Source of the DNA: Leptolyngbya sp. BL-A-14
Lineage (GTDB): Bacteria; Cyanobacteriota; Cyanobacteriia; Leptolyngbyales; Leptolyngbyaceae
Length of the DNA stretch: 64,000 nucleotides
Assembly (NCBI GenBank): GCA_041937185.1
Contig: CP166621.1
Coordinates: 2,452,571-2,516,570 of the forward strand
Reading direction: 5' to 3'
The translations under genes were made by a program, and so were the position numbers. Shown here piece by piece: positions 9,765-59,997 of the stretch (within the stretch, counting starts at the first letter, position 1; the number at the start of each line of letters is the position of its first letter). The notes beneath the pieces were generated by a model that saw nothing but the letters and a program-made list of their open reading frames with translations, was not told the origin of the DNA and searched no databases.

Positions 9765-10166
9765 TATTTAACGAAGTACAAAGGACAGGTGCTCAAGGAG
9801 TCGGAGCGGCTCTTGCCTGGCTCCCTAACCACCGTTTGCCAGTTTTCACGCGGCTTTCTCCTTAATCATGCCTTTTTTCGGCAGGAACGGCACCCCCAAT
9901 TTCGACCTTGCGACCAAAGCAGCAAAATCGCCATTTGAAAGGACTTTTGCCGTTGCTTGGTTTCGTTTTTGCCCCTGATCTTCTATGCTTAGAGTTTGGC
10001 TCACTTAGGAAAGCGTCTGCGAATGATTCGGACGATCACGCTTTCAGATAAGATCAGGGAATGTTTGTGATTAGCTACTTCTGCATTGTGAGGTTTTAGA
10101 CGCCTCTAATGCCGATGAGCCAATCATCAAACAGGTTTTACTGCATAACCATCGCCGCTGCATTGA

Positions 10167-11946: not shown

Positions 11947-13860
11947 ATGACGACAACGACCACTCGCTTTCCGATCGACCTCGGCGCTTACAAGCCGCTT
12001 AAGCTAGACCCTGCCAACAAAACGCTGACTGACGAACAGCGCGAAACCCTCAAAGCCAACATTCAGCTTTGCCGGGACGCAATTATCTTTTTCACTGCAA
12101 CGGGTGCAGCAAGAGGGGTCGGCGGTCACACGGGCGGACCTTATGACACCGTGCCTGAAGTCGTGATTTTAGATGCTCTTTTCCGCAGCGCGCCCGATCA
12201 GTTCGTGCCCATCTTCTTCGACGAGGCAGGTCATCGCGTCGCCACCCAATATTTAATGGCAACCCTTCACGGTGACTTGCCTGCCGAACAGTTGACTCGC
12301 TACCGGGAAGCACACGCGCATTTGCCTGGACACCCAGAACTCGGACTCACTCCGGGTGTGAAATTTAGCTCCGGTCGTCTCGGTCACATGTGGCCTTATG
12401 TTAACGGTGTGGCGCTGGCAAACCCTGGCAAAACGGTTTTCTGCCTTGGTTCAGATGGGTCTCAGCAAGAAGGGAACGATGCGGAAGCGGCACGGTTAGC
12501 GGTGGCTCAGCACATCAACGTCAAGCTGATCATTGATGACAACGATGTGACGATCGCTGGGCATCCCTCCAAATACCTCCCTGGTTACAGCGTTGCCAAA
12601 ACACTAGAAGGGCATGGCCTCAAGGTCTTGGAAGGCAATGGCGAAGATCTGGATGATCTGTACGCTCGCATTATTGAAGCGATCGCGACACCAGGACCGA
12701 TCGCAGTTGTTAACAAGCGCCCCATGTCCGTTGGCATCGAAGGCCTAGAAGGTTCCACTCACGGTCATGATGTTATTTCGGTAAAACTGGCGATTGCCTA
12801 CCTGGAGAAACGCGGTTTAACGGCAGCAGTGGACTTTTTGAAGGCGATCGAAACGCCCAAAAATCCCTACAAGTTCATTGGTGCAGGCGACAAGTGGGAC
12901 TCCAACCGCAACGTCTTTGGCGATGCGGTGAATGCGGTATTGGATGGCATGAGCGAAGCCGATCGCAAAGCCAAAGTGCTGGTGATCGACAGCGACCTCG
13001 AAGGCTCCTGCGGTTTGAAGAAAATCCACGATGCTCATCCCGAAGTCTTCATCCCCTCTGGCATTATGGAGCGGGGTAACATTTCGGCAGCAGCGGGCTT
13101 TGGCATGGAGAAAGGCAAACAGGGTATTTTCGCAACCTTCGCCGCCTTCTTAGAAATGTGCATCTCCGAAATCACGATGGCGCGGTTGAATTACTCCAAC
13201 CTGCTTTGTCACTTCTCCCATTCCGGCATCGACGACATGGCAGACAACACCTGCCACTTCGGCATTAACAACTTCTTTGCCGACAACGGGCTGGACGATG
13301 GCTACGAAACCCGCCTTTACTTCCCTGCCGATGCAGGCCAAATGAAAGCGGTTGTCAAAGGTGTTTTCCACGACCCAGGTCTGCGCTTCATCTTCTCCAC
13401 CCGTTCCAAAACGCCGAACATTCTCGATGCCAGTGGCAAAGACCTGTACGGCGAAGGCTATACCTTTGTACCCGGCAAAGATGAAGTGGTACGCGAAGGC
13501 ACCGCCGGCTACATCGTCAGCTTTGGTGATGGTTTGTATCGTGCGCTGGATGCTGTGCATCGCCTGAAGCAAGAAGGCATTGACGTTGGTTTGATCAACA
13601 AGCCGACGTTGAATGTGGTGGATGAAGCGACGATCGCCAAAATCGGTGCAACCCCCTTTGTCATCGTCGTCGAAGCCTTCAACCGCAAAACAGGTCTAGG
13701 CAGCCGCTTTGGCACCTGGCTTTTGGAGCGCGGCCTGACTCCCAAGTATGCTCACCTCGGCACCCACAAAGAAGGCTCCGGTGGTCTGTGGGAACAGTAT
13801 CCCCACCAGGGCATTGACTCAGACGGCATTATCGCCAAAGTCAAGGAACTGGTTGGCTAA
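11947..13860 (+). CDS. Divergent transketolase-family thiamine-diphosphate enzyme
   Basis: 637 aa with a TPP-binding GDG...N motif (GSDGSQQEGNDAEAARLA...LIIDDNDVTIAGH) and GHPE...TPGV, which resembles transketolase. It is clearly unlike canonical cyanobacterial TktA at the N-terminus. Confidence 0.5.
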   Translation: MTTTTTRFPIDLGAYKPLKLDPANKTLTDEQRETLKANIQLCRDAIIFFTATGAARGVGGHTGGPYDTVPEVVILDALFRSAPDQFVPIFFDEAGHRVATQYLMATLHGDLPAEQLTRYREAHAHLPGHPELGLTPGVKFSSGRLGHMWPYVNGVALANPGKTVFCLGSDGSQQEGNDAEAARLAVAQHINVKLIIDDNDVTIAGHPSKYLPGYSVAKTLEGHGLKVLEGNGEDLDDLYARIIEAIATPGPIAVVNKRPMSVGIEGLEGSTHGHDVISVKLAIAYLEKRGLTAAVDFLKAIETPKNPYKFIGAGDKWDSNRNVFGDAVNAVLDGMSEADRKAKVLVIDSDLEGSCGLKKIHDAHPEVFIPSGIMERGNISAAAGFGMEKGKQGIFATFAAFLEMCISEITMARLNYSNLLCHFSHSGIDDMADNTCHFGINNFFADNGLDDGYETRLYFPADAGQMKAVVKGVFHDPGLRFIFSTRSKTPNILDASGKDLYGEGYTFVPGKDEVVREGTAGYIVSFGDGLYRALDAVHRLKQEGIDVGLINKPTLNVVDEATIAKIGATPFVIVVEAFNRKTGLGSRFGTWLLERGLTPKYAHLGTHKEGSGGLWEQYPHQGIDSDGIIAKVKELVG

Positions 13861-25698: not shown

Positions 25699-25929
25699 GA
25701 GAGACTCTTCATAAGGTGAGCTTAGAGTACCCATGCAGAGTGAGAAAAAGCACATCACAAAGCAACTACTACTGAGACTCAAGCTTTTACGCTTAACTCC
25801 ACATAGCAGAACAGACGAACCAGGCTACTTACCAAACCCGATTAGATGCACAAACTTGATAAAGAATCTCTTTCTGAGAAGTAAAGCTCTACCTCCAGTG
25901 GCAAGGTTTCTCTAGCCCTAAACCTTAAG

Positions 25930-25980
25930 ACCAATCGGGATGACAGGATTCGAACCTGCGGCATCCTGCTCCCAAAGCAG
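25930..25980 (-). repeat. att core copy (3' 46 nt of tRNA-Pro plus 5 nt; partial, no 5' half)
   Basis: Matches 58455-58505 exactly. The sequence diverges immediately upstream of the anticodon stem. Confidence 0.8.
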
Positions 25981-26095
25981 TAGTACTGCATTACCAAGAA
26001 CAGCGCTAGACTAGGCAGAGTAGGGGCTATCAGCACTGTTGGCAGGGTAATTAACCATCCTGAAACGTGTTGTAACGTCCCTAATCAGACACTAA

Positions 26096-26117
26096 TTTAG
26101 GGCTGATTTAGGGCTGA
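26096..26117 (+). repeat. Tandem TTTAGGGCTGA x2, identical to 58412-58433 (putative integrase arm-type sites)
   Basis: Exact 22-nt identity at both island ends in the same orientation, each followed by nnCATG. Confidence 0.6.
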
Positions 26118-26120
26118 AAC

Positions 26121-27179
26121 ATGGATGAAATAGAGCGGGTAAACGAGCGCTTAAAAGCTGCGAATGTCCCAGTACGGGTACGTTTGAAAGGAAAAAACTT
26201 GGCGCTACGTGCCACTCTGCCCAAGAAACCTGGAGACGGACTCGGTCGCAAGCAGTACGACATCAGTTTGCTGCTGTCTGCTACCAAAGATGGGCTAAAG
26301 CGAGCCGAGCGGGAAGCGCACAAGCTAGCTCAGAACTTAGCCGAAGGGTCTTTTGATTGGAAGCTTTACATCGGCTCGCAGCATGACCCACTGGCGAAGC
26401 CTATCGCCCAGTTGGTGAATGAGTTTAAGGATGAGTATTGCCGCACTCACCGCATTCAAGAAGCTACCTGGCGGAATACGTGGGCAGGAACGTTTCGCAA
26501 GCTTCCCGTAAACGAGCCTATCAGTGAAGCATTGCTGCTGGCAGCCGTCCTATCGACAGAGCAGGATAGTCGCAATCGTGAGCTTACCTGTCAACGGTTG
26601 CAACGGTTCGCTGCCTTTGCAGGTTTACAGGTGGATCTAAGTAGTTACAGTGGCGCTTATGAGCCAGAACCGCGTGATATTCCAACGGATGAAGCGATCA
26701 TTGAATGGCGCGATCGCATCCCGAATCAAAGCTGGCAGTGGGTTTATGGCATGTTGGCAACATTTGGCTTAAGACCGCACGAAGCCTTTGCCTGCGAATT
26801 TATAGACCCGCTGACACTGAAGGTGCATCAGGACACGAAAACCGGGAGCCGTACCACCCGTGCCATCCTGCCAGAGTGGGCTAAACAGTGGCAGTTAATT
26901 GAGGTGAAGTGCCCCAACACGCGCAGTAAAAGCATCAAAGGCCGTGGTGGGTTGGTGAGCCGTCAGTTTGGCAGTGAGCGATACAACTTACCCTTTGTCC
27001 CCTACGATTTGCGCCACGCCTGGGCAGTGCGGGCATCGGTTGCGAAGGGGCTACCTGTGAGCACTGCCGCTGCGATGATGGGGCACAGTGTCACTACCCA
27101 TACTCGCGTCTATCATCGCTGGTTGAGCGATGCCCAAAATGAGCGGGTCTATCGATCGCTGATTCTGGGTGAAAGTTAA
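26121..27179 (+). CDS. Tyrosine-type site-specific integrase
   Basis: C-terminal catalytic region ...YDLRHAWAVRA...MMGHSVTTHTRVYHRW carrying the R, HxxR and Y residues. Confidence 0.8.
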   Translation: MDEIERVNERLKAANVPVRVRLKGKNLALRATLPKKPGDGLGRKQYDISLLLSATKDGLKRAEREAHKLAQNLAEGSFDWKLYIGSQHDPLAKPIAQLVNEFKDEYCRTHRIQEATWRNTWAGTFRKLPVNEPISEALLLAAVLSTEQDSRNRELTCQRLQRFAAFAGLQVDLSSYSGAYEPEPRDIPTDEAIIEWRDRIPNQSWQWVYGMLATFGLRPHEAFACEFIDPLTLKVHQDTKTGSRTTRAILPEWAKQWQLIEVKCPNTRSKSIKGRGGLVSRQFGSERYNLPFVPYDLRHAWAVRASVAKGLPVSTAAAMMGHSVTTHTRVYHRWLSDAQNERVYRSLILGES

Positions 27180-27511
27180 CCTACGGCTCGGAGCTTGCGA
27201 AAATGCCGCTGCAAGGCTTTTCTGCAACTCGGAATGTGATATTCCCACGTCGGGCGATCGCCCTTGCTGACGTTGCGAATTTCGCCCTTAGCCTCGCTGA
27301 ATGCCCCATCAAGCCGCAATCTCTGGAGATGCTTCGGATTCTTCACGCCTTCATTTTGAAGCGCTGTTGCTGCGACGTTAGGCTCAGCCCACCCTTCAAC
27401 ATGGGCAGGAGTGCCAGCGATATAGTCGCGAAGCTGTCGCACCTCAGATTTAAGCTGGGCCATTTCGAGCAACATTTGGGCAAGCATTTTTTCGGCTTCT
27501 TGGGTCATGAT
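27176..27511 (-). CDS. Hypothetical protein, last gene of the replication operon
   Basis: Its start at 27511 lies 1 nt after the stop of the 1259-aa gene. ORF-track frame 27176..27601. Confidence 0.4.
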   Translation of the reverse strand: MMTQEAEKMLAQMLLEMAQLKSEVRQLRDYIAGTPAHVEGWAEPNVAATALQNEGVKNPKHLQRLRLDGAFSEAKGEIRNVSKGDRPTWEYHIPSCRKALQRHFRKLRAVG

Positions 27512-30500
27512 GCCAAAGCCTCCCTTGTTAACTCTGGAATCGCAGCTTGAAGCGCTCTGAGAGGAATAATCTGCTTGATTGCCGATCGTGCTTCCTCGCA
27601 ATCAGCGGCATCCCACATCTGCCGGATATTATCCAATTCGTCTTTGGAAAACCAGGAAGGTGGAGGCGATGCAGGCGTGTTCTCTCCGTAAGGGGCAGAC
27701 TGCCCACTGTCACGATCAACAGCGGTTTCAACGCTGCCGGGTGGGGTTTCCTGTTTCTCCTCACACTTGCTCAAGAATCTTTCTGTGAGGGCTTTAAGGA
27801 TGGTCTCGCGATCGATGTCCTCTCGATTGGTGATGGCGTACTGGCACTCGCGATCGCTACGTTTACCCTTACGACTGACTTGATCAGCCTCGTAGCCTAA
27901 CTTGCGAAGCAGCTTGTTAACGGTTTGAGTTGGGGTATGCTTTGGCATGATGGTGAGCCGCAAAAAGCGGCGAAACTGGCGTGCACGGAGTAATGCCCAC
28001 TCATGGACCGCGATCGCTTCTGGTGTCGCACTATCCCACTCCAACACGTTGCCATCGATAAACGGTTGTAGTGGGCATTCGTGCAGTAGTTTCGCCTTAC
28101 CTGCAACAACTGATAAACGATGCGCAACAACAAACTGATGGCGCTTCGCAGCCGTGCTGACTTGATATAGCCAGTCCCATCGGTTGATCTGCTGAGCCGC
28201 TTCAGGATGTTGTGACAGCCAAAGCATCTCTGTCGTCTTCAAAAAGCGCCCGCGTTTGGCAATGACTGCCTTGAGAGCAAAATCCACATCGCTAAGCGGT
28301 ACGCCAGGCAATTTGTCTTCCAGCAGGCATTTCTTGGCGACTAACCTTTGCGCGCTTGTTGAACTTGGATCGTTAAGGGCACTACGAGCTAAGGATGGTG
28401 TCAAATGGGACGTGTCAGCTTCTGCCCACTCGATCGCTTTTTCTCGGTCGATTTGCTCTAGAACTGCTTCCCAGTCGTCCGCAATGTGATCGATTCTGCC
28501 CAGAACCTGCTGTGTAACTTCGTGCCCCTGGTTCTCCCAAATCGTCATTAAGTTGTCACGTAAAGCAGTTTTGCCGTAGGCTTCCCGTGCTTTGTAACGA
28601 CTGTAATGCCGTAGGTAAAAACCTAAATCTGTGGTGTGGTCGTTCCACTGCTCATCAACCCGCTGCCATTCCTGAACTAAATCAACATCATCCTGCTGAC
28701 GCTCAGCATGACTGGCAAAATCGATCAGCTTAGCGATGCCGTTTTTGTTACGCCGCAAGTCGCGCAGAATCAGGTCTGGACGAGAACCGCTGTAAAGATC
28801 ATCCTCCGTTGCAGCACGTTCGCAGATATAGCCAAAGCGAGGCACGTCAGTACGCAGTCGATCACAGAGTTGCTTCGCTTCACGTGGTTCCAAGTGAGTA
28901 AAGTGGAACGCCATCCCACTGAAGTAGCCCTCATCATCGTCAATGCTGACGCCACTTCCCATCGTTGGGCTATAGCCAAACACTCTGGGACGACGTTCGT
29001 AAAGCCACTCGGTCGGGTTTTGGATGCACTTGTGCGCCCAGTCCTCCTGTGAGTTTTCAGAGGTGATGAAGACGCAATCAATGCCCTGGTCTTGCAGCCA
29101 GCGCTCAATTTTTGCGAGCCATCGTTGAGAGTCGCTAGTGACAACTAGGTTTTCACCCTTATCTAGGCGGATTAAAATCTCTTCGCCTGTAATTGAGGGG
29201 GAATCGTAAACATAGTAGCTGCGCGGGTTGGTGACTTGCCTGGTGAACTTTAAATGTTCTACCACCTCTAGCCCAGAAGCCTCTCGAACAAAGTCAAGCT
29301 CCAGGTTCGTTAAACCATCCTCGGAAAGAACGATCCAGCCGTCCCGCTTTGCGACTTCCCGAAATAGCTGACGGGTTCGTTCGATCACGAAAGCATGGTA
29401 GTTCTTGCAGGTATCGCCGTAGGTAACTTGCTTAAACGCTTGCCCTGCTTCGTCAACCACAATCAACGGTGGATGATTGGGTAAATTCTCTGGACTGATG
29501 AGCCCGATCGATTCAAAACAGGAAGTACCTCTAAGCCGCCCTTTGTCTCTAGCAAAATCAACCGTCGATCGATGGGGAAGCCCTAAAGTGTTGCCTGATT
29601 GCAGTCCGAGTAAATTGCGTGGAGTAAAAAGCCACTCTAACCCCAGCGGATAGCGTTTGCGGTGCTGCCCTACCAGGTCTTTTAGAGCGGTAGCTGTTTT
29701 ACCAACGCCCATTGTTCCATCGACCAGAATAATCCCTGGTTTGTCCGGTAAGCGCATTAACCCTTTGGGTATGTAGCGCCCAGACTCCCGAATCGTTGGC
29801 TCGATCCTTAACCCGTTTAACTCAGCTTGGATGCGTTCAGTTTCTTCCCTCCAGCGATCGCGTCGTCGTTGTTCTGCTTCCTCCCGTGCCTGTTTGCGAT
29901 CGTCGCTTTCCAGAGACTCTAGAAGTTCTAGATCGCCCTCAAACTCAGCCGTATAGACAGCAACGGGCTTTTGTCTACGCTGCGTCGGCAGTTCGACAAC
30001 GTTCGATGGTCTCGATGGCTGTGGCTGCCAAACTGGAGGCTCTACGCCATGCAACGACAGAAAGGCTTTTGCTTGCTCGACGTACTCTTTACCGCGTGGG
30101 AAAGGTGCCCCTTTGCCATAGGTGGCATAACGCCAATAGGTGAAGGCATCAATCCGCTTTTCGTGCGTGCAGGCAGGGCAAACATAGCCCCATGTGCCTT
30201 TCTTCCCACTGATATAGGCAGAGTTACCAGAAGTCGAATCATGCCAATAGCAACGCCCTCTAGCGTGTTCGCCGCTGGGTTCAAACTGCCAGCTGTGGTT
30301 ATATAGCTCGAAAGCGTCTTTACCCAAGCGATCGCACGTTTGTCTTACTAAATCGCTGAGTTGTGTATCCTCTGATCGCCCTTCCGCCTGCAAGCGCTGG
30401 TTGCGTTGCTCGCGTCGTTGCTGCCGTTCGGCTTCCACTTGGGCTTTTGCTGCCTCATAGCCAGCTTGACCAACTTCTAGGGCAGCTTTCACCAGTGCTG

Positions 30501-40798: not shown

Positions 40799-40924
40799 AC
40801 AGAGAGGCTTACCCGTCAACTGTCAGGTGTCGGCTGACACTCTACCTGCCACTTACCTGACAGTACACCCGACACTTACCCGACACTCTACCTGCCACTT
40901 ACTTGATACTTTTCTTCTAACATT

Positions 40925-44123: not shown

Positions 44124-44156
44124 TCAACCTTAAAGCCTAGAACTAAAGAACCACTA

Positions 44157-44188
44157 GCCCTGTCGCACTGGCAGGGCTTTTTCATGTC
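44157..44188 (+). terminator. Rho-independent terminator (AGCCCTGtcgcactggCAGGGCT + T5); near-identical copy at 49036
   Basis: 7-bp stem, 9-nt loop, T-run. Confidence 0.55.
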
Positions 44189-48834: not shown

Positions 48835-49035
48835 ATTAACCCTGCCCTTCTCCCTGGTCTGCTAGGGATGGGAGTTGCAGCGCTGCGAAAGAAGCGAAAA
48901 GAGGCATCAGAACAGGTAGCTGAAACTGTCGAAGCTTAAATCTCCTTACGTCTAGTTGCTCCTCCTGCGTGTTAACGTGGGAGGCTTTTAGTGCTTGTAG
49001 CTGGCAGGGTTGGGGTGTCCATTCATAAGCAGGGC

Positions 49036-49063
49036 TAACCCTGTCGCACTGGCAGGGCTTTTC
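49036..49063 (+). terminator. Second copy of the CCCTGTCGCACTGGCAGGG + T-run hairpin
   Basis: A 24-nt identical core to 44159-44182. Confidence 0.45.
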
Positions 49064-49652: not shown

Positions 49653-50793
49653 TAGGATCGCACCTTCTGCATCTTTATTTTTTTAATCTCTACGGGTCCA
49701 ATTCCCCGTCTGCTTGCAGCGTTTGTAGTGGGCGGAAGTGCGTCCCGAAGGGAAAATTCCGTAATGCCTCGTCTGCTTGCAGCGAGGATAGGAATTTTAG
49801 CGCTCCGCAACTTTTACTTGGAAAACCTTTTTAAGGTATCAGACATTTTTTCTCTTCTTTCAATCAGAAAACCTACCTTTCCCCGCGCCATAAAAGCATC
49901 GTGAAGGTTTGCTAAAAGACGAGAAAGCCCGACACCAGCGATCGGGCTTGTAATGAAGAACTTACTGTATTTTTGCTGGCTAGCTTAGCGTACCCAAGCA
50001 GATTGAATCGGTGAACATTGCCAACCTACGTGTCCTCATCCTCGTTATCCCACGATTCTTGGTCATAACCGAGGCGCTGCAGCATTTTTGGGTTCTTGGG
50101 TCAAAGAGCACTGCGCAGGGAGCACCGTGCAGACAGGCGAGGGGCAGAAAATTGCCAGAAGTCTCGACAGAAGGGCTTCTAACCGCAATCAACTTGCTAA
50201 GAGTTACGTTAAGACTTAGTCGTCTCAATGTGGACTATACCTTTTTGAGGGGTCGTGCAAAGAACCCCATTTTATGCTCCTGACTACTCAACTCATCCCA
50301 ATTGTTTTCATAGGAGTCTGGTGGACGATAGCGATCACTCTGCCAGGGCAGACGGTCGTAGGCTTGAGTTCTGCTTAGGAGTTTGCCTAAAGACGAGAAA
50401 GCCCGATACCAGCGATCGGGCAAGTATTCACCTTGAAAAAACGCCAGTAACGAAACTGGCGTGCTTATTGTGCCCATTCATAAGCAGAGTTAACAGAGCG
50501 ATCGCCCTTCCCACTCTGGACTAGCTGCAAACTGGCACAATTACCGAAAGTCTTACGCAGTGCTAGTTTCACTTTTTCAGTGTCTTGCACTTCTGCCATT
50601 TAGGCAGTGAACCCAATGGACTAAATACTAACTGAAAGTGCTATTGAATAAATGTTTTAGATTTTTAGGTTAGTCCAACTTTTCAACTTTGGACTACGAT
50701 TGGACTAAACGCCTTAAATGTGACAGTTGCTGAATAAAGCGATTGTGCCAGTTACGTTAGCGCTGTTAGCCCGTTAGCAATTCAGGTTTTCTT

Positions 50794-52921: not shown

Positions 52922-54278
52922 TTAGAAAATACTCCCTGGCGAGTTCAAGATAATAGGCGTGAATTTTCTTGTTTTTGAGCACAGCAGGTACGCGTGCAAA
53001 AGCAGAACTGGAAACAACGGCATAGTCTGGGAGGTTGAACACGGTTTTGTCCACGTTGCCAGGTCGGATCTTAGGAAAAAAATACGGCAACATATTAATC
53101 CCATCTGCTGGGTTTGCCTTTAAAATTCGCTCAATCTCCTCGCGTGCCATATCGATTGAGCGACCAGCAGCAGGACTGCCATTGAAGAAAATGGGAAGCG
53201 CGATCGGCCCACCATCTTGCCTTAACGTTTTGACCTTGGGCACAAACTCCTGCACAACTCTGGCAGCATTATGGAGCGATGACAGATCATCATGGCGAGT
53301 GGGAATCAGTACAGCATCAGCTGCATAAACCCCACTCTGACTAAAAAAAACCCATTGTGTCGGACAGTCAATAAAGATGTAGTCATACTCGTTGCTAAAC
53401 GGTTGCAGCAAATCTCTGAGCCGAGCGGACGCTTTCTGTACACGGGCTTGGGTATCTTGGGTAAACGCTTCCATACCCAGATCTGCTGGTATTACATCAA
53501 AAATGTGATACACCTTCCCAGCTCTTAGAGTCACTTTATACGGCACGATGGTCGAGCGGATATCTAAAGCTCTGTCTTTTAAGCACTCAGACAGCTTGAT
53601 GTTGTTTGGCTGTAGCCCTAAAGATGTTGTCAAATCACGCTGGGAGTCGAAGTCAACCAATAGTACTTTCTTCTTCTCAGCTGCTAAAGCCGATGCCAAG
53701 TTGATAGTCGTCGTCGTTTTACCTACGCCACCCTTGTTGTTGTAGACACAAACACTGAGGCTGCGAGGAGGATTGTCAATCAGTTTCTTGATTTGATCAA
53801 CGACAGACTTAATATTCTCTCCAGTAATTTCAATGCATTTCGTTGCAGGCACAACAGCCTTGTTGTGATGTCTAAAAAGCTGAATATGAGTTGAGTTAGT
53901 AATAATACCCCAGTGGGCAGTCTTGCCTTTGGGGGAGAGCAGATACCGTTTTAGTTGTGCTCTCGTTGATAGGTATTGTCTAGAGCCCTCTGCTAGATTG
54001 ATGGGGCTGCCTCCACCTGTAAAGCGCCCTTTAATTTCAACCATTAAGAAAGGATCGGCTTTAGTAAAGCTGAAGTTGTCATCAGCTGTGTTCTTGCGAG
54101 CAGCAAAATCAACACTGTCGCTTCCTGCTCCAGTCGCCAATTCACCTACGCGCTCATTTGCGCTAAAGCCCAGCGCTTCCAACAAGTAAGGGACAAAGTG
54201 ACTACCCACGTCAGCTTCTGTTGCCTGCGGAGGAATATTGGCTAAAACTTTGCTCCAATCCATCAACGCTGACCCCAC
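52914..54278 (-). CDS. Fusion of an HSDR_N-like PD-(D/E)xK nuclease-fold domain to a ParA/MinD-type Walker ATPase
   Basis: N-terminal ~150 aa: EADVGSHFVPYLLEALGF...DSVDF...DPFLMVEIKG, a restriction-enzyme N-terminal-like D...E.K pattern. C-terminus has the deviant Walker A YNNKGGVGKTTTT, LLVDFDSQ and IFIDCP of ParA. Confidence 0.6.
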   Translation of the reverse strand: MGSALMDWSKVLANIPPQATEADVGSHFVPYLLEALGFSANERVGELATGAGSDSVDFAARKNTADDNFSFTKADPFLMVEIKGRFTGGGSPINLAEGSRQYLSTRAQLKRYLLSPKGKTAHWGIITNSTHIQLFRHHNKAVVPATKCIEITGENIKSVVDQIKKLIDNPPRSLSVCVYNNKGGVGKTTTTINLASALAAEKKKVLLVDFDSQRDLTTSLGLQPNNIKLSECLKDRALDIRSTIVPYKVTLRAGKVYHIFDVIPADLGMEAFTQDTQARVQKASARLRDLLQPFSNEYDYIFIDCPTQWVFFSQSGVYAADAVLIPTRHDDLSSLHNAARVVQEFVPKVKTLRQDGGPIALPIFFNGSPAAGRSIDMAREEIERILKANPADGINMLPYFFPKIRPGNVDKTVFNLPDYAVVSSSAFARVPAVLKNKKIHAYYLELAREYFLNE

Positions 54279-57368: not shown

Positions 57369-58037
57369 TCAGCAGTGATTGGTCCCGTTGACGACTGCCA
57401 CGGTTGCCAGTTCTGAATCAGCTCGCGCTGTCGCTGTCGTGCTTCCGGTGTCCATCGGGGCATAGGGTGAAGCCTCTAGTGATGTGGCTGCATGGGACTC
57501 TTGCTCAACTTTCAGTTGGTTGACCTGCTTATCAACGTAGTTTTTGATGAACTGGCTCGGCTTCTTAGGATTGCGAATGTTATCCAGCGTCGTGATTGTG
57601 CGGCGGGATTGCTCCTGGCAGCGGAGTGCTAATTCGAGCAGGCGCGATCGAAGAGTCGTATTTGGCGCACTGTGAGACGCCGTAGCCATGTTGTAAAACA
57701 GAAAATCCAGCGTCGTGATTTGCACTGCTAACCGAGCCTCTAACTCTTTTTGGCTAAAGCCTTCGCCTGTCTGCAAGGCATGAAACGTGGCAATGAGGTT
57801 GTCTGGAGCCGCACCGGGGTCATTAAGTGCAGCAGCAGCTTGGAAATAAAAACTGGTACGCAAACGGGTATCGTTCTGGGCTGACTCACTAGCCTCAACA
57901 GACTCGCCATCAAGCGTCACTTGTAATTGGCGTTTGACTTGCTGCTGTGCTTGCTGCTGCTTTTGAGCCTGGTTTTCTGCCTGCTTACGTTTAGCTATCT
58001 GCAAAAGAAGATCGTGCGACGTTGGTTTTTTTGACAT
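57369..58037 (-). CDS. Hypothetical Gln-rich protein at the island's right end
   Basis: 222-aa ORF whose start is embedded in three tandem TTTTTTGACA 10-mers. Confidence 0.35.
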   Translation of the reverse strand: MSKKPTSHDLLLQIAKRKQAENQAQKQQQAQQQVKRQLQVTLDGESVEASESAQNDTRLRTSFYFQAAAALNDPGAAPDNLIATFHALQTGEGFSQKELEARLAVQITTLDFLFYNMATASHSAPNTTLRSRLLELALRCQEQSRRTITTLDNIRNPKKPSQFIKNYVDKQVNQLKVEQESHAATSLEASPYAPMDTGSTTATARADSELATVAVVNGTNHC

Positions 58038-58411
58038 TTTTTGACATTTTTTGACGTTTTCTAGCGCTTTCTGCCGATGACCCTCTTTGTCGGTTCACAA
58101 AAAACTCAAATGAGTATCACCTATGAGTTGTGCGATCGTTGTTTCAGCGATCCACTTCACGTCAGCAGACAGCTTGTTAATGAGTACCTAGAAGCTTCAT
58201 CGAACTAGGCAACGGACAACAAGATCGCGGCGTAATATTCTTTTGCCACAAGCTAGCTGAACAACTGCTCTCTTCTCTTTACAACAGACAGTTCAAGTAT
58301 AGACAGTGCCAACATAGGCAGACACACAAAGATCGTGTCATCAACTCGTATGGATAAACATACTTAGCGAGTTGTTGACACCGCTAGGGTGAAATATTCT
58401 CTTTTACTGGT

Positions 58412-58433
58412 TTTAGGGCTGATTTAGGGCTGA
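58412..58433 (+). repeat. Tandem TTTAGGGCTGA x2, identical to 26096-26117
   Basis: Exact identity with the left-end copy. It lies 22 nt from the att core. Confidence 0.6.
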
Positions 58434-58459
58434 TTCATGACCCTGATCCCCAAAACCAA

Positions 58460-58533
58460 TCGGGATGACAGGATTCGAACCTGCGGCATCCTGCTCCCAA
58501 AGCAGGCGCGCTACCAAGCTGCGCTACATCCCG
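58460..58533 (-). tRNA. tRNA-Pro (anticodon UGG), CCA not encoded
   Basis: Hand-folded cloverleaf: acceptor CGGGATG/CATCCCG, D-stem GCGC/GCGC, anticodon stem CCTGC/GCAGG with loop TTTGGGA, T-loop TTCGAAT, 74 nt. Confidence 0.9.
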
Positions 58534-59817: not shown

Positions 59818-59997
59818 ACTCTGATGTGGCAGGTTGCTTGCGTGAATGTGTTAGCGCGATCGCACAGTTACCTTCAGCCCGATAAGGAGACATAGAACGT
59901 TGTCCTGCTTTACTTAACGGCTATGTCTCCTTGAGGCCAGCGACTCTGCAATCGTCTGTGCCTAGCTCCCCTTCAGGCTTTAGCCCTAAAGCTAGAC

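Follow-up and report, generated by a model that had tools for sequence, protein, structure and literature searches.

Candidate arm-type integrase sites at both ends of a tRNA-Pro island of Leptolyngbya and a recurrent attachment-site layout among relatives of its XisA/XisC-like integrase

In phage lambda, attP, the attachment (att) site of the circular element, spans about 240 bp and carries short motifs on both sides of the core which are distinct from it, the arm-type sites P1, P2 and P'1-3. Arm-type sites are textbook knowledge; they set the efficiency and the direction of integrase reactions. Here we describe candidates for such sites in the cyanobacterium Leptolyngbya sp. BL-A-14. The DNA under study, in the following called the window, is a stretch of 64 kb which contains an island of 32.6 kb integrated at the gene for tRNA-Pro(UGG). 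The island encodes its own integrase (gene int), a XisA/XisC-like tyrosine recombinase. An identical 22-mer is situated just inside either end of the island, and from the sequence comparisons presented below the two are probably the P and P' arm sites of this integrase. What appears to be new are putative arm sites in the XisA/XisC-like family, a rule of about 85 bp for the position of one arm, and a repeat pair right at the start of int. In the literature searched none of the three is mentioned.

Several described systems share individual traits with this locus. In mycobacteriophage L5, adjacent pairs of arm sites (P1-P2 and P4-P5) flank a tRNA-derived core, and int lies beside attP; L5 uses an integrase of another family and the mycobacterial integration host factor mIHF. 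The heterocyst excisases XisA and XisC (nifD and hupL) possess the same pair of Pfam domains as the family of the window integrase, yet they act on repeats of 11-16 bp inside protein genes and are developmentally regulated. In comparison with lambda the likenesses are considerable. A short non-core motif stands on both sides of the core, the whole spans about 230 bp, and a linker joins an N-terminal domain of the integrase to its core-binding and catalytic domains; the predicted structure aligns with that of lambda Int (1z1b_B). The differences are that the integrase belongs to the XisA/XisC-like family, that each arm holds one tight tandem pair of uniform orientation, that the core is a tRNA anticodon stem-loop, and that int is transcribed away from the core. 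Further, sites of the integration host factor (IHF) type were not recognised in the window; an array of phased 10-bp units with A-rich ends is present instead.

In KplE1 the P' arm sites overlap the intS promoter in attL, and intS is negatively autoregulated (PMC2951348). As in the KplE1/HK620 IntS-TorI system, int of the window adjoins a tRNA-derived att site, is transcribed away from it, and has the putative P' sites in its control region. Unlike there, the pair abuts the start codon itself, consensus scans of both att regions for promoters and terminators returned nothing, autoregulation is proposed by analogy, and int of the window clade adjoins a displaced tRNA fragment, not the intact tRNA. 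A plasmid-like element of 37 kb in Anabaena variabilis is inserted in tRNA-Cys, of which it carries the 3' part, and its tyrosine recombinase has been compared to XisA; crossover was proposed to occur in the anticodon loop, and the circular form has been detected (bioRxiv 10.64898/2025.12.09.693284). That paper gives neither arm sites nor a function for an N-terminal domain, and its integrase is compared here by description only. Two metagenomic relatives of the window integrase (L033 and L049) adjoin tRNA-Cys(GCA), which is the target type of the A. variabilis element.

The boundaries of the Leptolyngbya island are well defined by an exact direct repeat of 50 bp, which corresponds to tRNA-Pro from the anticodon stem to 4 nt beyond the 3' end. 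The right att core (58456-58505, minus strand) makes up the 3' part of tRNA-Pro(UGG), an intact gene located at 58460-58533 on the minus strand by ARAGORN and Rfam; in the Rfam scan this tRNA was the sole match. The left att core (25931-25980, minus strand), identified by the 50-bp repeat and by the anticodon position, is a displaced 3' part of tRNA-Pro. psbA adjoins the island on this left side. With a repeat that runs from the anticodon stem to the 3' end and an intact tRNA at one end, the island belongs to the anticodon-loop tRNA islands. The crossover likely takes place in the anticodon loop, at about 25970-25976 of the left core, as judged from a related locus with a tRNA-Val core (L004, see below) and by analogy with the A. 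variabilis element (bioRxiv 10.64898/2025.12.09.693284).

The 22-mer, TTTAGGGCTGATTTAGGGCTGA, is a tandem of the 11-mer TTTAGGGCTGA and is exact at both island ends. A first-pass annotation of this DNA had drawn attention to identical 22-bp tandem repeats in the same orientation inside both ends, 115 bp and 22 bp from the left and the right core, respectively, and had placed the left one directly at the integrase start codon. All of this is borne out. The integrase-proximal or P'-type pair, TTTAGGGCTGA twice, occupies 26096-26117 on the plus strand, 115 bp from the left core; its start is 123 bp away from the anticodon centre, and 3 nt separate its end from the ATG of the 352-aa integrase. The integrase-distal or P-type pair, an identical 22-mer, occupies 58412-58433, again on the plus strand, and is separated by 22 bp from the core, its start being 86 bp from the anticodon centre. 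Four exact copies of the 11-mer exist in the window, all of them within the two 22-mers. When one mismatch at most is allowed, 8 matches are found versus 1.13 expected, a number which was reached in 0 of 100 dinucleotide shuffles.

In close relatives the pairs are preserved while their surroundings change. The block TTTAGGGCTrr-TTTAGGGCTGA is located 2-3 nt before the ATG of int in Phormidium sp. FACHB-592 (L004, 88% integrase identity to the window), in L005 (80%) and in two loci of Leptolyngbya sp. GGD (L006 and L007, 69%); the flanks diverge. This proximal pair is the longest invariant block of the intergenic alignment, and variation is confined to the last two bases of its first unit. At the opposite, tRNA-proximal end the exact 22-mer exists in Stenomitos frigidus ULC18 (L001), 25 bp from tRNA-Pro, with a differing spacer and with a homologue of the island's 222-aa gene alongside. 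The position corresponds to that in the window; the first-pass annotation had suggested to look for the same sub-terminal motif at other tRNA-Pro islands. L092 has it at the same end as well, and in both loci the neighbouring bases differ from those of the window. The first-pass annotation had further emphasised that both copies are followed by nnCATG. This is true in the window; at the distal end of the relatives TCGATT (L001) and TTTATA (L092) are found in its stead. We consider nnCATG incidental at the tRNA-proximal end because it is not kept in these two loci, and have discarded it as a shared feature.

L004 deserves a separate comment. Its core, in the region 9808-9865, is a 3' fragment of tRNA-Val(UAC), which has the same anticodon-stem sequence as tRNA-Pro, and the arm pair is the same. 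Since the arms are kept with a tRNA-Val core, recognition of arms and core appears to be separable; since tRNA-Val and tRNA-Pro share the anticodon stem, a crossover in the anticodon loop gains support. L004 looks like a recent switch of the target tRNA.

A family-alignment scan of metagenomes supplied 80 loci with 32-62% integrase identity. As a tandem we accepted units with at least 9 of 11 matching positions, a period of 10-13 nt and a location within 60 nt of the int start. By this measure the int start bears a tandem in 29 of 81 relatives and in 2% of shuffled sequences; about half of the distant loci, below approximately 40% identity, are without a clear one. In relatives with pairs the second unit ends 0-7 nt before the start codon or overlaps it. 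The motif itself drifts by lineage and takes the forms TTTAGGGAAGA, TTTAGTTCAGA, TTTAGCTCAGA, ATTAGATCAGA, TTTTAGGCCAAA, TTTAAGCCAAC, TTTAATGCAGT and CGTTCCAAGAT. Other tandem repeats occupy the int start in L077, L081, L057 and L060, and the far ends of these four loci are beyond the fetched flanks. In many metagenome loci int is preceded, at 130-170 nt, by an intact tRNA gene (Met, Ala, Arg, Val, Glu or Cys) that points the same way (L012, L020, L023, L024, L029, L033, L048, L049, L069 and L072 are of this type); in the window clade the neighbour of int is instead the displaced tRNA fragment, and tRNA and int have opposite orientations.

Both arms of one attP can be read in three distant relatives. 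L095, retrieved by a protein search of PLSDB, is a circular plasmid of 13 kb from Picosynechococcus sp. PCC 8807 with a 33.6% identical integrase. Because it is circular it displays attP itself. A distal pair CGTTCCAAGAT-TGTTCCAAGGA (12887-12908) is followed by the 3' part of tRNA-Met with the anticodon at 12969-12971, by a 10-bp-phased array which copies the core half-site (TAGGGACTGG twice, then TGAGGACTCATAGG), by the proximal pair CGTTCCAAGAT-CGTTCCAGGGG (13126-13147) and, after 6 nt, by the int ATG. The other two are attP-type junctions from metagenomes. L014 with a partial tRNA-Met has the pairs TTTAGGCCAAA/AATAGTTCAGT and TTTAGTTCAAA/TTTAGTTCAGT, and L026 with the 3' part of tRNA-Phe has TTATAGGCAAG/ATTTAGGCATG and TTTTAGGCAAG/TTTTAGTCATG. 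Of the 22 positions, 3 (L095), 4 (L014) and 3 (L026) differ between the first and the second pair. No further match of this closeness to the first pair exists in the loci L095 and L026; L014 contains in addition a weaker match with 5 mismatches. The first-pass annotation had argued that circularisation would bring the repeats to both sides of the core, and precisely this is seen directly in the three loci, each with a motif of its own. A repeated non-core motif on both sides of the core is then common to the window, L095, L014 and L026. It changes with the integrase lineage, and the two arms of one element stay alike, a covariation that runs through related clades and comprises few independent events.

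The spacing is equally regular. Counted from the middle base of the anticodon, the distal pair starts at -86 in the window and in L001, at -83 in L095, and at -85 in both L014 and L026. The proximal pair starts at +123 in the window, at +156 in L095, at +135 in L014 and at +150 in L026; where an intact tRNA adjoins int the range is +132 to +166. The distal spacing is 83-86 bp in five of the five measured cases, despite the flipped tRNA part in the window clade. Because the distance is constant in spite of this flip, it indicates a structural constraint, as one would expect of an intasome. Complete islands were also sought in the fetched loci by way of 14-mers common to the DNA upstream and downstream of int; none was obtained, as the islands exceed the 10-kb flanks.

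Between the left core and the proximal pair of the window four phased units of 10 bp, CCATCCTGAAAC, GTGTTGTAAC, GTCCCTAATC and AGACACTAA, are lined up (26055-26095, plus strand). Each terminates in an A-rich run, and the first repeats the core half-site CATCCTG. Similar arrays phased at 10 bp exist in L095, L014, L026, L012, L029 and L048. In L095 (13081-13118), L014 (2146-2176) and L026 (8130-8166) they consist of 3-4 units, again with A-rich runs at the unit ends, and likewise lie between core and proximal pair. The arrays copy the core half-site in the Met- and Phe-targeting elements and do so partly in the window. Judged by their sequence, the units at 26055-26095 are candidate bend sites or sites for an accessory protein.

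Does the integrase possess a domain suited for arm binding? The 352-aa protein (26121-27179, plus strand) was delineated by its ATG start, by a pair of Pfam domains and by its predicted structure. Precomputed Pfam assignments list XisAC_N (PF27551) and XisAC_2nd (PF27132) for the window integrase and for 120 of 120 listed homologues; on account of this pair we call it XisA/XisC-like. The catalytic domain is present as well: PF00589 matches weakly at residues 286-333, and R218, K240, R298, H322 and Y331 are invariant. The protein is composed of an N-terminal domain (residues 1-84), a linker (85-88), a core-binding domain (about 95-167) and a catalytic domain (about 190-347). In the AlphaFold model (predicted local distance difference test, pLDDT, 89.6) the N-domain is predicted as a helix, three strands and a helix, followed by helical core-binding and catalytic domains. 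The linker is of low confidence with a pLDDT below 50. The full model matches XerA, Tn1549 Int and full-length lambda Int, 1z1b_B, the latter over 356 alignment columns.

The isolated N-domain had no match in Foldseek, nor had its sequence profile against PDB sequences. Its sole Pfam signal is Arm-DNA-bind_2 (PF12167), for which the window protein has an E value of 0.15; among 25 members of the integrase family, 5 match PF12167 individually, the best with an E value of 0.0019. When the family profile of the N-domain was aligned by hhalign with the N-terminus of an Arm-DNA-bind_2 integrase (L090), the probability was 88% at an E value of 3e-6 over 55 columns. The N-domain thus appears to be remotely homologous to Arm-DNA-bind_2, and by model, profile alignment and PF12167 it is predicted to be a separate domain on a flexible linker. 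The worry of the first-pass annotation, that the integrase might lack an arm-type N-terminal domain, is countered by the predicted domain 1-84, its linker and the hhalign result.

A further hint comes from a comparison of strand 2 of this domain with the arm motif. In TTTAG-motif lineages strand 2 reads LRATLP. In L029, L033, L049 and L050 it reads LQATLP or LQAVLP, i.e., R30 in the window numbering is replaced by Q, and in the motifs of these loci (TTTAAGCC, TTAATAC, TAATGCA) A replaces G at the fifth base of the arm unit. An exchange of Arg to Gln along with G to A is what one would expect of a direct base contact; the coincidence is suggestive, and the four loci may constitute a single clade.

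From the anatomy, the conservation, the covariation of the arms within an element and the constant P spacing, all of which are plain from the alignments, we infer a model in which the integrase is the binding protein, an intasome is formed and int is autoregulated. The circular attP would open with the start of the 222-aa gene and some 370 bp of non-coding, conserved DNA, and continue with the P pair (-86 to -65), the tRNA-derived core, in whose anticodon loop the crossover would take place, a stretch of about 75 bp, the four phased units of 10 bp, the P' pair (+123 to +144), 3 nt and the ATG of int. From P to P' this would span about 230 bp. The N-terminal domain of the XisA/XisC-like integrase would bind the TTTAGGGCTGA units, while the same protomers would hold the anticodon stem-loop with their core-binding and catalytic domains. 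Folding of both arms onto the core would yield the intasome, and with it efficient and directional recombination. The phased units at 26055-26095 could bend the P' arm or bind an accessory protein, for which a 110-aa protein encoded next to int would be a candidate. With the P' pair right next to the start codon of int, repression of this gene by bound integrase is to be expected; by analogy with IntS of KplE1, the integrase-proximal pair may thus have a second role as the site from which the integrase represses its own gene.

Could a different protein of the element bind the tandem units, for example a directionality factor such as the 110-aa protein, or a repressor? Known excisionases bind short direct repeats spaced by about 10 bp, a conserved small gene adjoins int in the window and in L004-L006, the integrase-proximal pair sits at an operator-like position, and it is by inference that the motif is linked to the N-domain. 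Nevertheless, we hold this to be unlikely. No protein apart from the integrase has been shown to be common to all pair-bearing elements, the backbones of L095, L014, L026 and the window being otherwise different. Excisionase sites are normally restricted to one arm, whereas here identical pairs are on both; one domain of the integrase is a homologue of an arm DNA-binding family, and for an accessory protein the phased 10-bp units beside the pair are the better candidates. Plasmid maintenance sites which happen to be near attP, either iterons or centromere repeats for a ParA-like partition system, have a slim chance of being the explanation. Such sites are short direct repeats, and the island does encode a replication protein, an SF2 helicase and a ParA-like ATPase. 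Yet there are just two units per site, elements that differ in their replication genes have them at a fixed position relative to the anticodon (83-86 bp) and the int start codon, and the pairs accompany the integrase even where neither a ParA nor a primase gene is nearby. The location of the second unit, 0-7 nt before the start codon or overlapping it, and the CATG after both window copies might also be taken to mean that the proximal pair is solely an expression signal of int, a leader or ribosome-binding region, and the distal copy a functionless relic of a duplication. The chance for this is very slim, as the distal copy is unaltered in three independent sequences despite varying flanks, distal pairs stand at the same distance in L095, L014 and L026, and many variants, e.g., ATTAGATCA and TTTAATGCAG, are devoid of Shine-Dalgarno-like bases.

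A last possibility is that the 22-mer is a dispersed genomic repeat which is at the island ends by coincidence; the first-pass annotation had named a common dispersed repeat as the finding that would speak against its proposal. We scanned one genome per species, 185,579 species and 596 Gb altogether, for the exact 22-mer. It was encountered in three genomes, once in each, and one of these is the same island end in Stenomitos. The BL-A-14 genome is not among the scan matches, and the count for the source strain covers the 64-kb window. Within the window the tandem is confined to the two island ends, a position which is reproduced in relatives; dispersed cyanobacterial repeats of the HIP1 or STRR type are therefore not what we are dealing with. 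This rules against a common repeat and leaves to coincidence a probability close to nil.

Some observations do weigh against arm sites, and part of them would be at home with a dispersed repeat. One of the other two scan matches is an orphan exact 22-mer in Elainella sp. Prado103 (L002, 7207-7228), about 160 nt upstream of argS, which overlaps the stop codon of a pentapeptide-repeat gene and has neither an integrase nor a tRNA nearby. The remaining one is an intergenic array of about three tandem copies in a metagenome-assembled genome of Pseudomonadota (L003, 609-641). By our own estimate, which is not a computed one, one or two chance tandem 11-mers across 596 Gb are not surprising. In the window the 9-mer TTTAGGGCT occurs four times outside of the pairs, always on the minus strand (25914-25922, 29579-29587, 53614-53622 and 59982-59990), versus 0.37 copies expected in all. 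Two of these single copies are inside island genes and one is 1.5 kb beyond the island; the one at 25914-25922 is inverted and belongs to the host flank, at a distance of 8 bp from the left core. Finally, the protein-DNA covariation spans related clades and amounts to few independent events, and the evidence for both arms is limited, as the far ends of most relatives are beyond the 10-kb flanks.

The 9-mer in the host flank raises the question whether the N-domain participates in reading the target. As regards attB, the host flanks contain no tandem pair, but they do contain this single inverted TTTAGGGCT close to the left core. A degenerate TTTAGGGCT copy in the spacer of the element itself (58439-58447) aligns with the copy in the host flank, and the Stenomitos version is nearer to the motif. 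Moreover, there is a likeness between the arm consensus TTTAGnnCAG and the D-arm (box A) of tRNA genes; L020 has the 11-mer GTTTAGCTCAG, with no difference, both at positions 5-15 of tRNA-Ala and in the arm (9797-9807 and 9968-9978). This D-arm likeness exceeds that of shuffled arms (3 of 2000 shuffles reach it). We examined the idea that arms copy the D-arm of the cognate tRNA and rejected it: the likeness is no better for cognate than for non-cognate tRNAs, and the resemblance is therefore generic. On the whole, a role of the N-domain in reading the target, as the host-flank TTTAGGGCT and the D-arm likeness might suggest, is unlikely. We know of no lambda-type integrase that uses its N-domain to choose attB. 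It would be bolder still to generalise. A pair at about 85 bp from the crossover, a pair at the int start and a phased array replacing IHF may represent a general plan of XisA/XisC-like intasomes, the nifD and hupL excisases included, perhaps with the N-domain helping to choose attB; we regard so far-reaching a scheme as doubtful.

Should the arms be as proposed, attP of this widespread cyanobacterial integrase family would be reduced to a minimal unit of about 230 bp plus int, from which integration tools for Leptolyngbya-like and other cyanobacteria could be built. It would also be explained how elements switch the target tRNA and retain their arms, as in L004 with tRNA-Val and the same arms, and one would have a lead on the control of XisA/XisC-type excisases.

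The conserved DNA next to the P pair has features of its own. The 222-aa gene (57369-58037) begins within three phased 10-mers (TTTTTTGACA; ATGTCAAAAA on the minus strand) at 58027-58056, which contain its start codon. The first-pass annotation had reported them; they are real and overlap the gene start as described, except that the third is imperfect (TTTTTTGACG). At the same place L092 (1128-1150) and L093 (232-255) have two such units. These 10-mers are unrelated to the arm motif and may represent an operator or serve slippage at the start codon. They are a second instance of phased repeats on a start codon beside attP. Homologues of the 222-aa protein in L088-L091 were followed up as leads to att sites; they are not at element ends and revealed no further att sites. 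Closer to the P pair, an imperfect inverted repeat GTGTCAtCAACTCG...CGAGTTGtTGACAC (58335-58382, no strand assigned) is part of a conserved block (58290-58390). It is near-invariant across the window, Stenomitos (L001) and L092, has a DNA fold z-score of -3.0 and is without a match in Rfam. It could bind a dimeric accessory protein, or be a single-strand origin or transfer signal.

On the other side of int, between it and the replication gene, a small gene is located at 27176-27508 on the minus strand; it encodes 110 aa from its ATG (MTQEAEK...). Genes for 106-111 aa occupy the same int-side place in L004, L005 and L006. The N-terminus of the 110-aa protein is coiled-coil-like, its C-terminal part is basic, and a family search gave no match; to view it as a candidate directionality factor or regulator is a guess. 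The island further encodes a large replication protein, an SF2 helicase, a HerA-like ATPase, a ParA-like protein, a hybrid histidine kinase and two LamG proteins. Because of this gene content the island looks like an integrated plasmid-like element and not like a prophage. Scans of viral contigs with the integrase and with the 222-aa protein yielded no matches.

Two plasmid loci were examined and set aside. L096, a copy on a Kovacikia megaplasmid, has no tRNA and no clear tandem. L094, a 17-kb plasmid of Microcystis aeruginosa NIES-298, encodes a family integrase and contains, in the region 9780-9900, a TTTAG-type pair about 170 nt from int, but has no tRNA-like core; the pair adjoins a long AT-rich repeat of the TATATAC type.

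The island harbours other repeats as well: three tandem units of 23 nt at 40836-40906, a 46-nt pair at 49907-49952 and 50381-50426, 474 bp apart, and a hairpin-like 28-nt pair (CTAGCCCTGTCGCACTGGCAGGGCTTTT) at 44154-44181 and 49035-49062.

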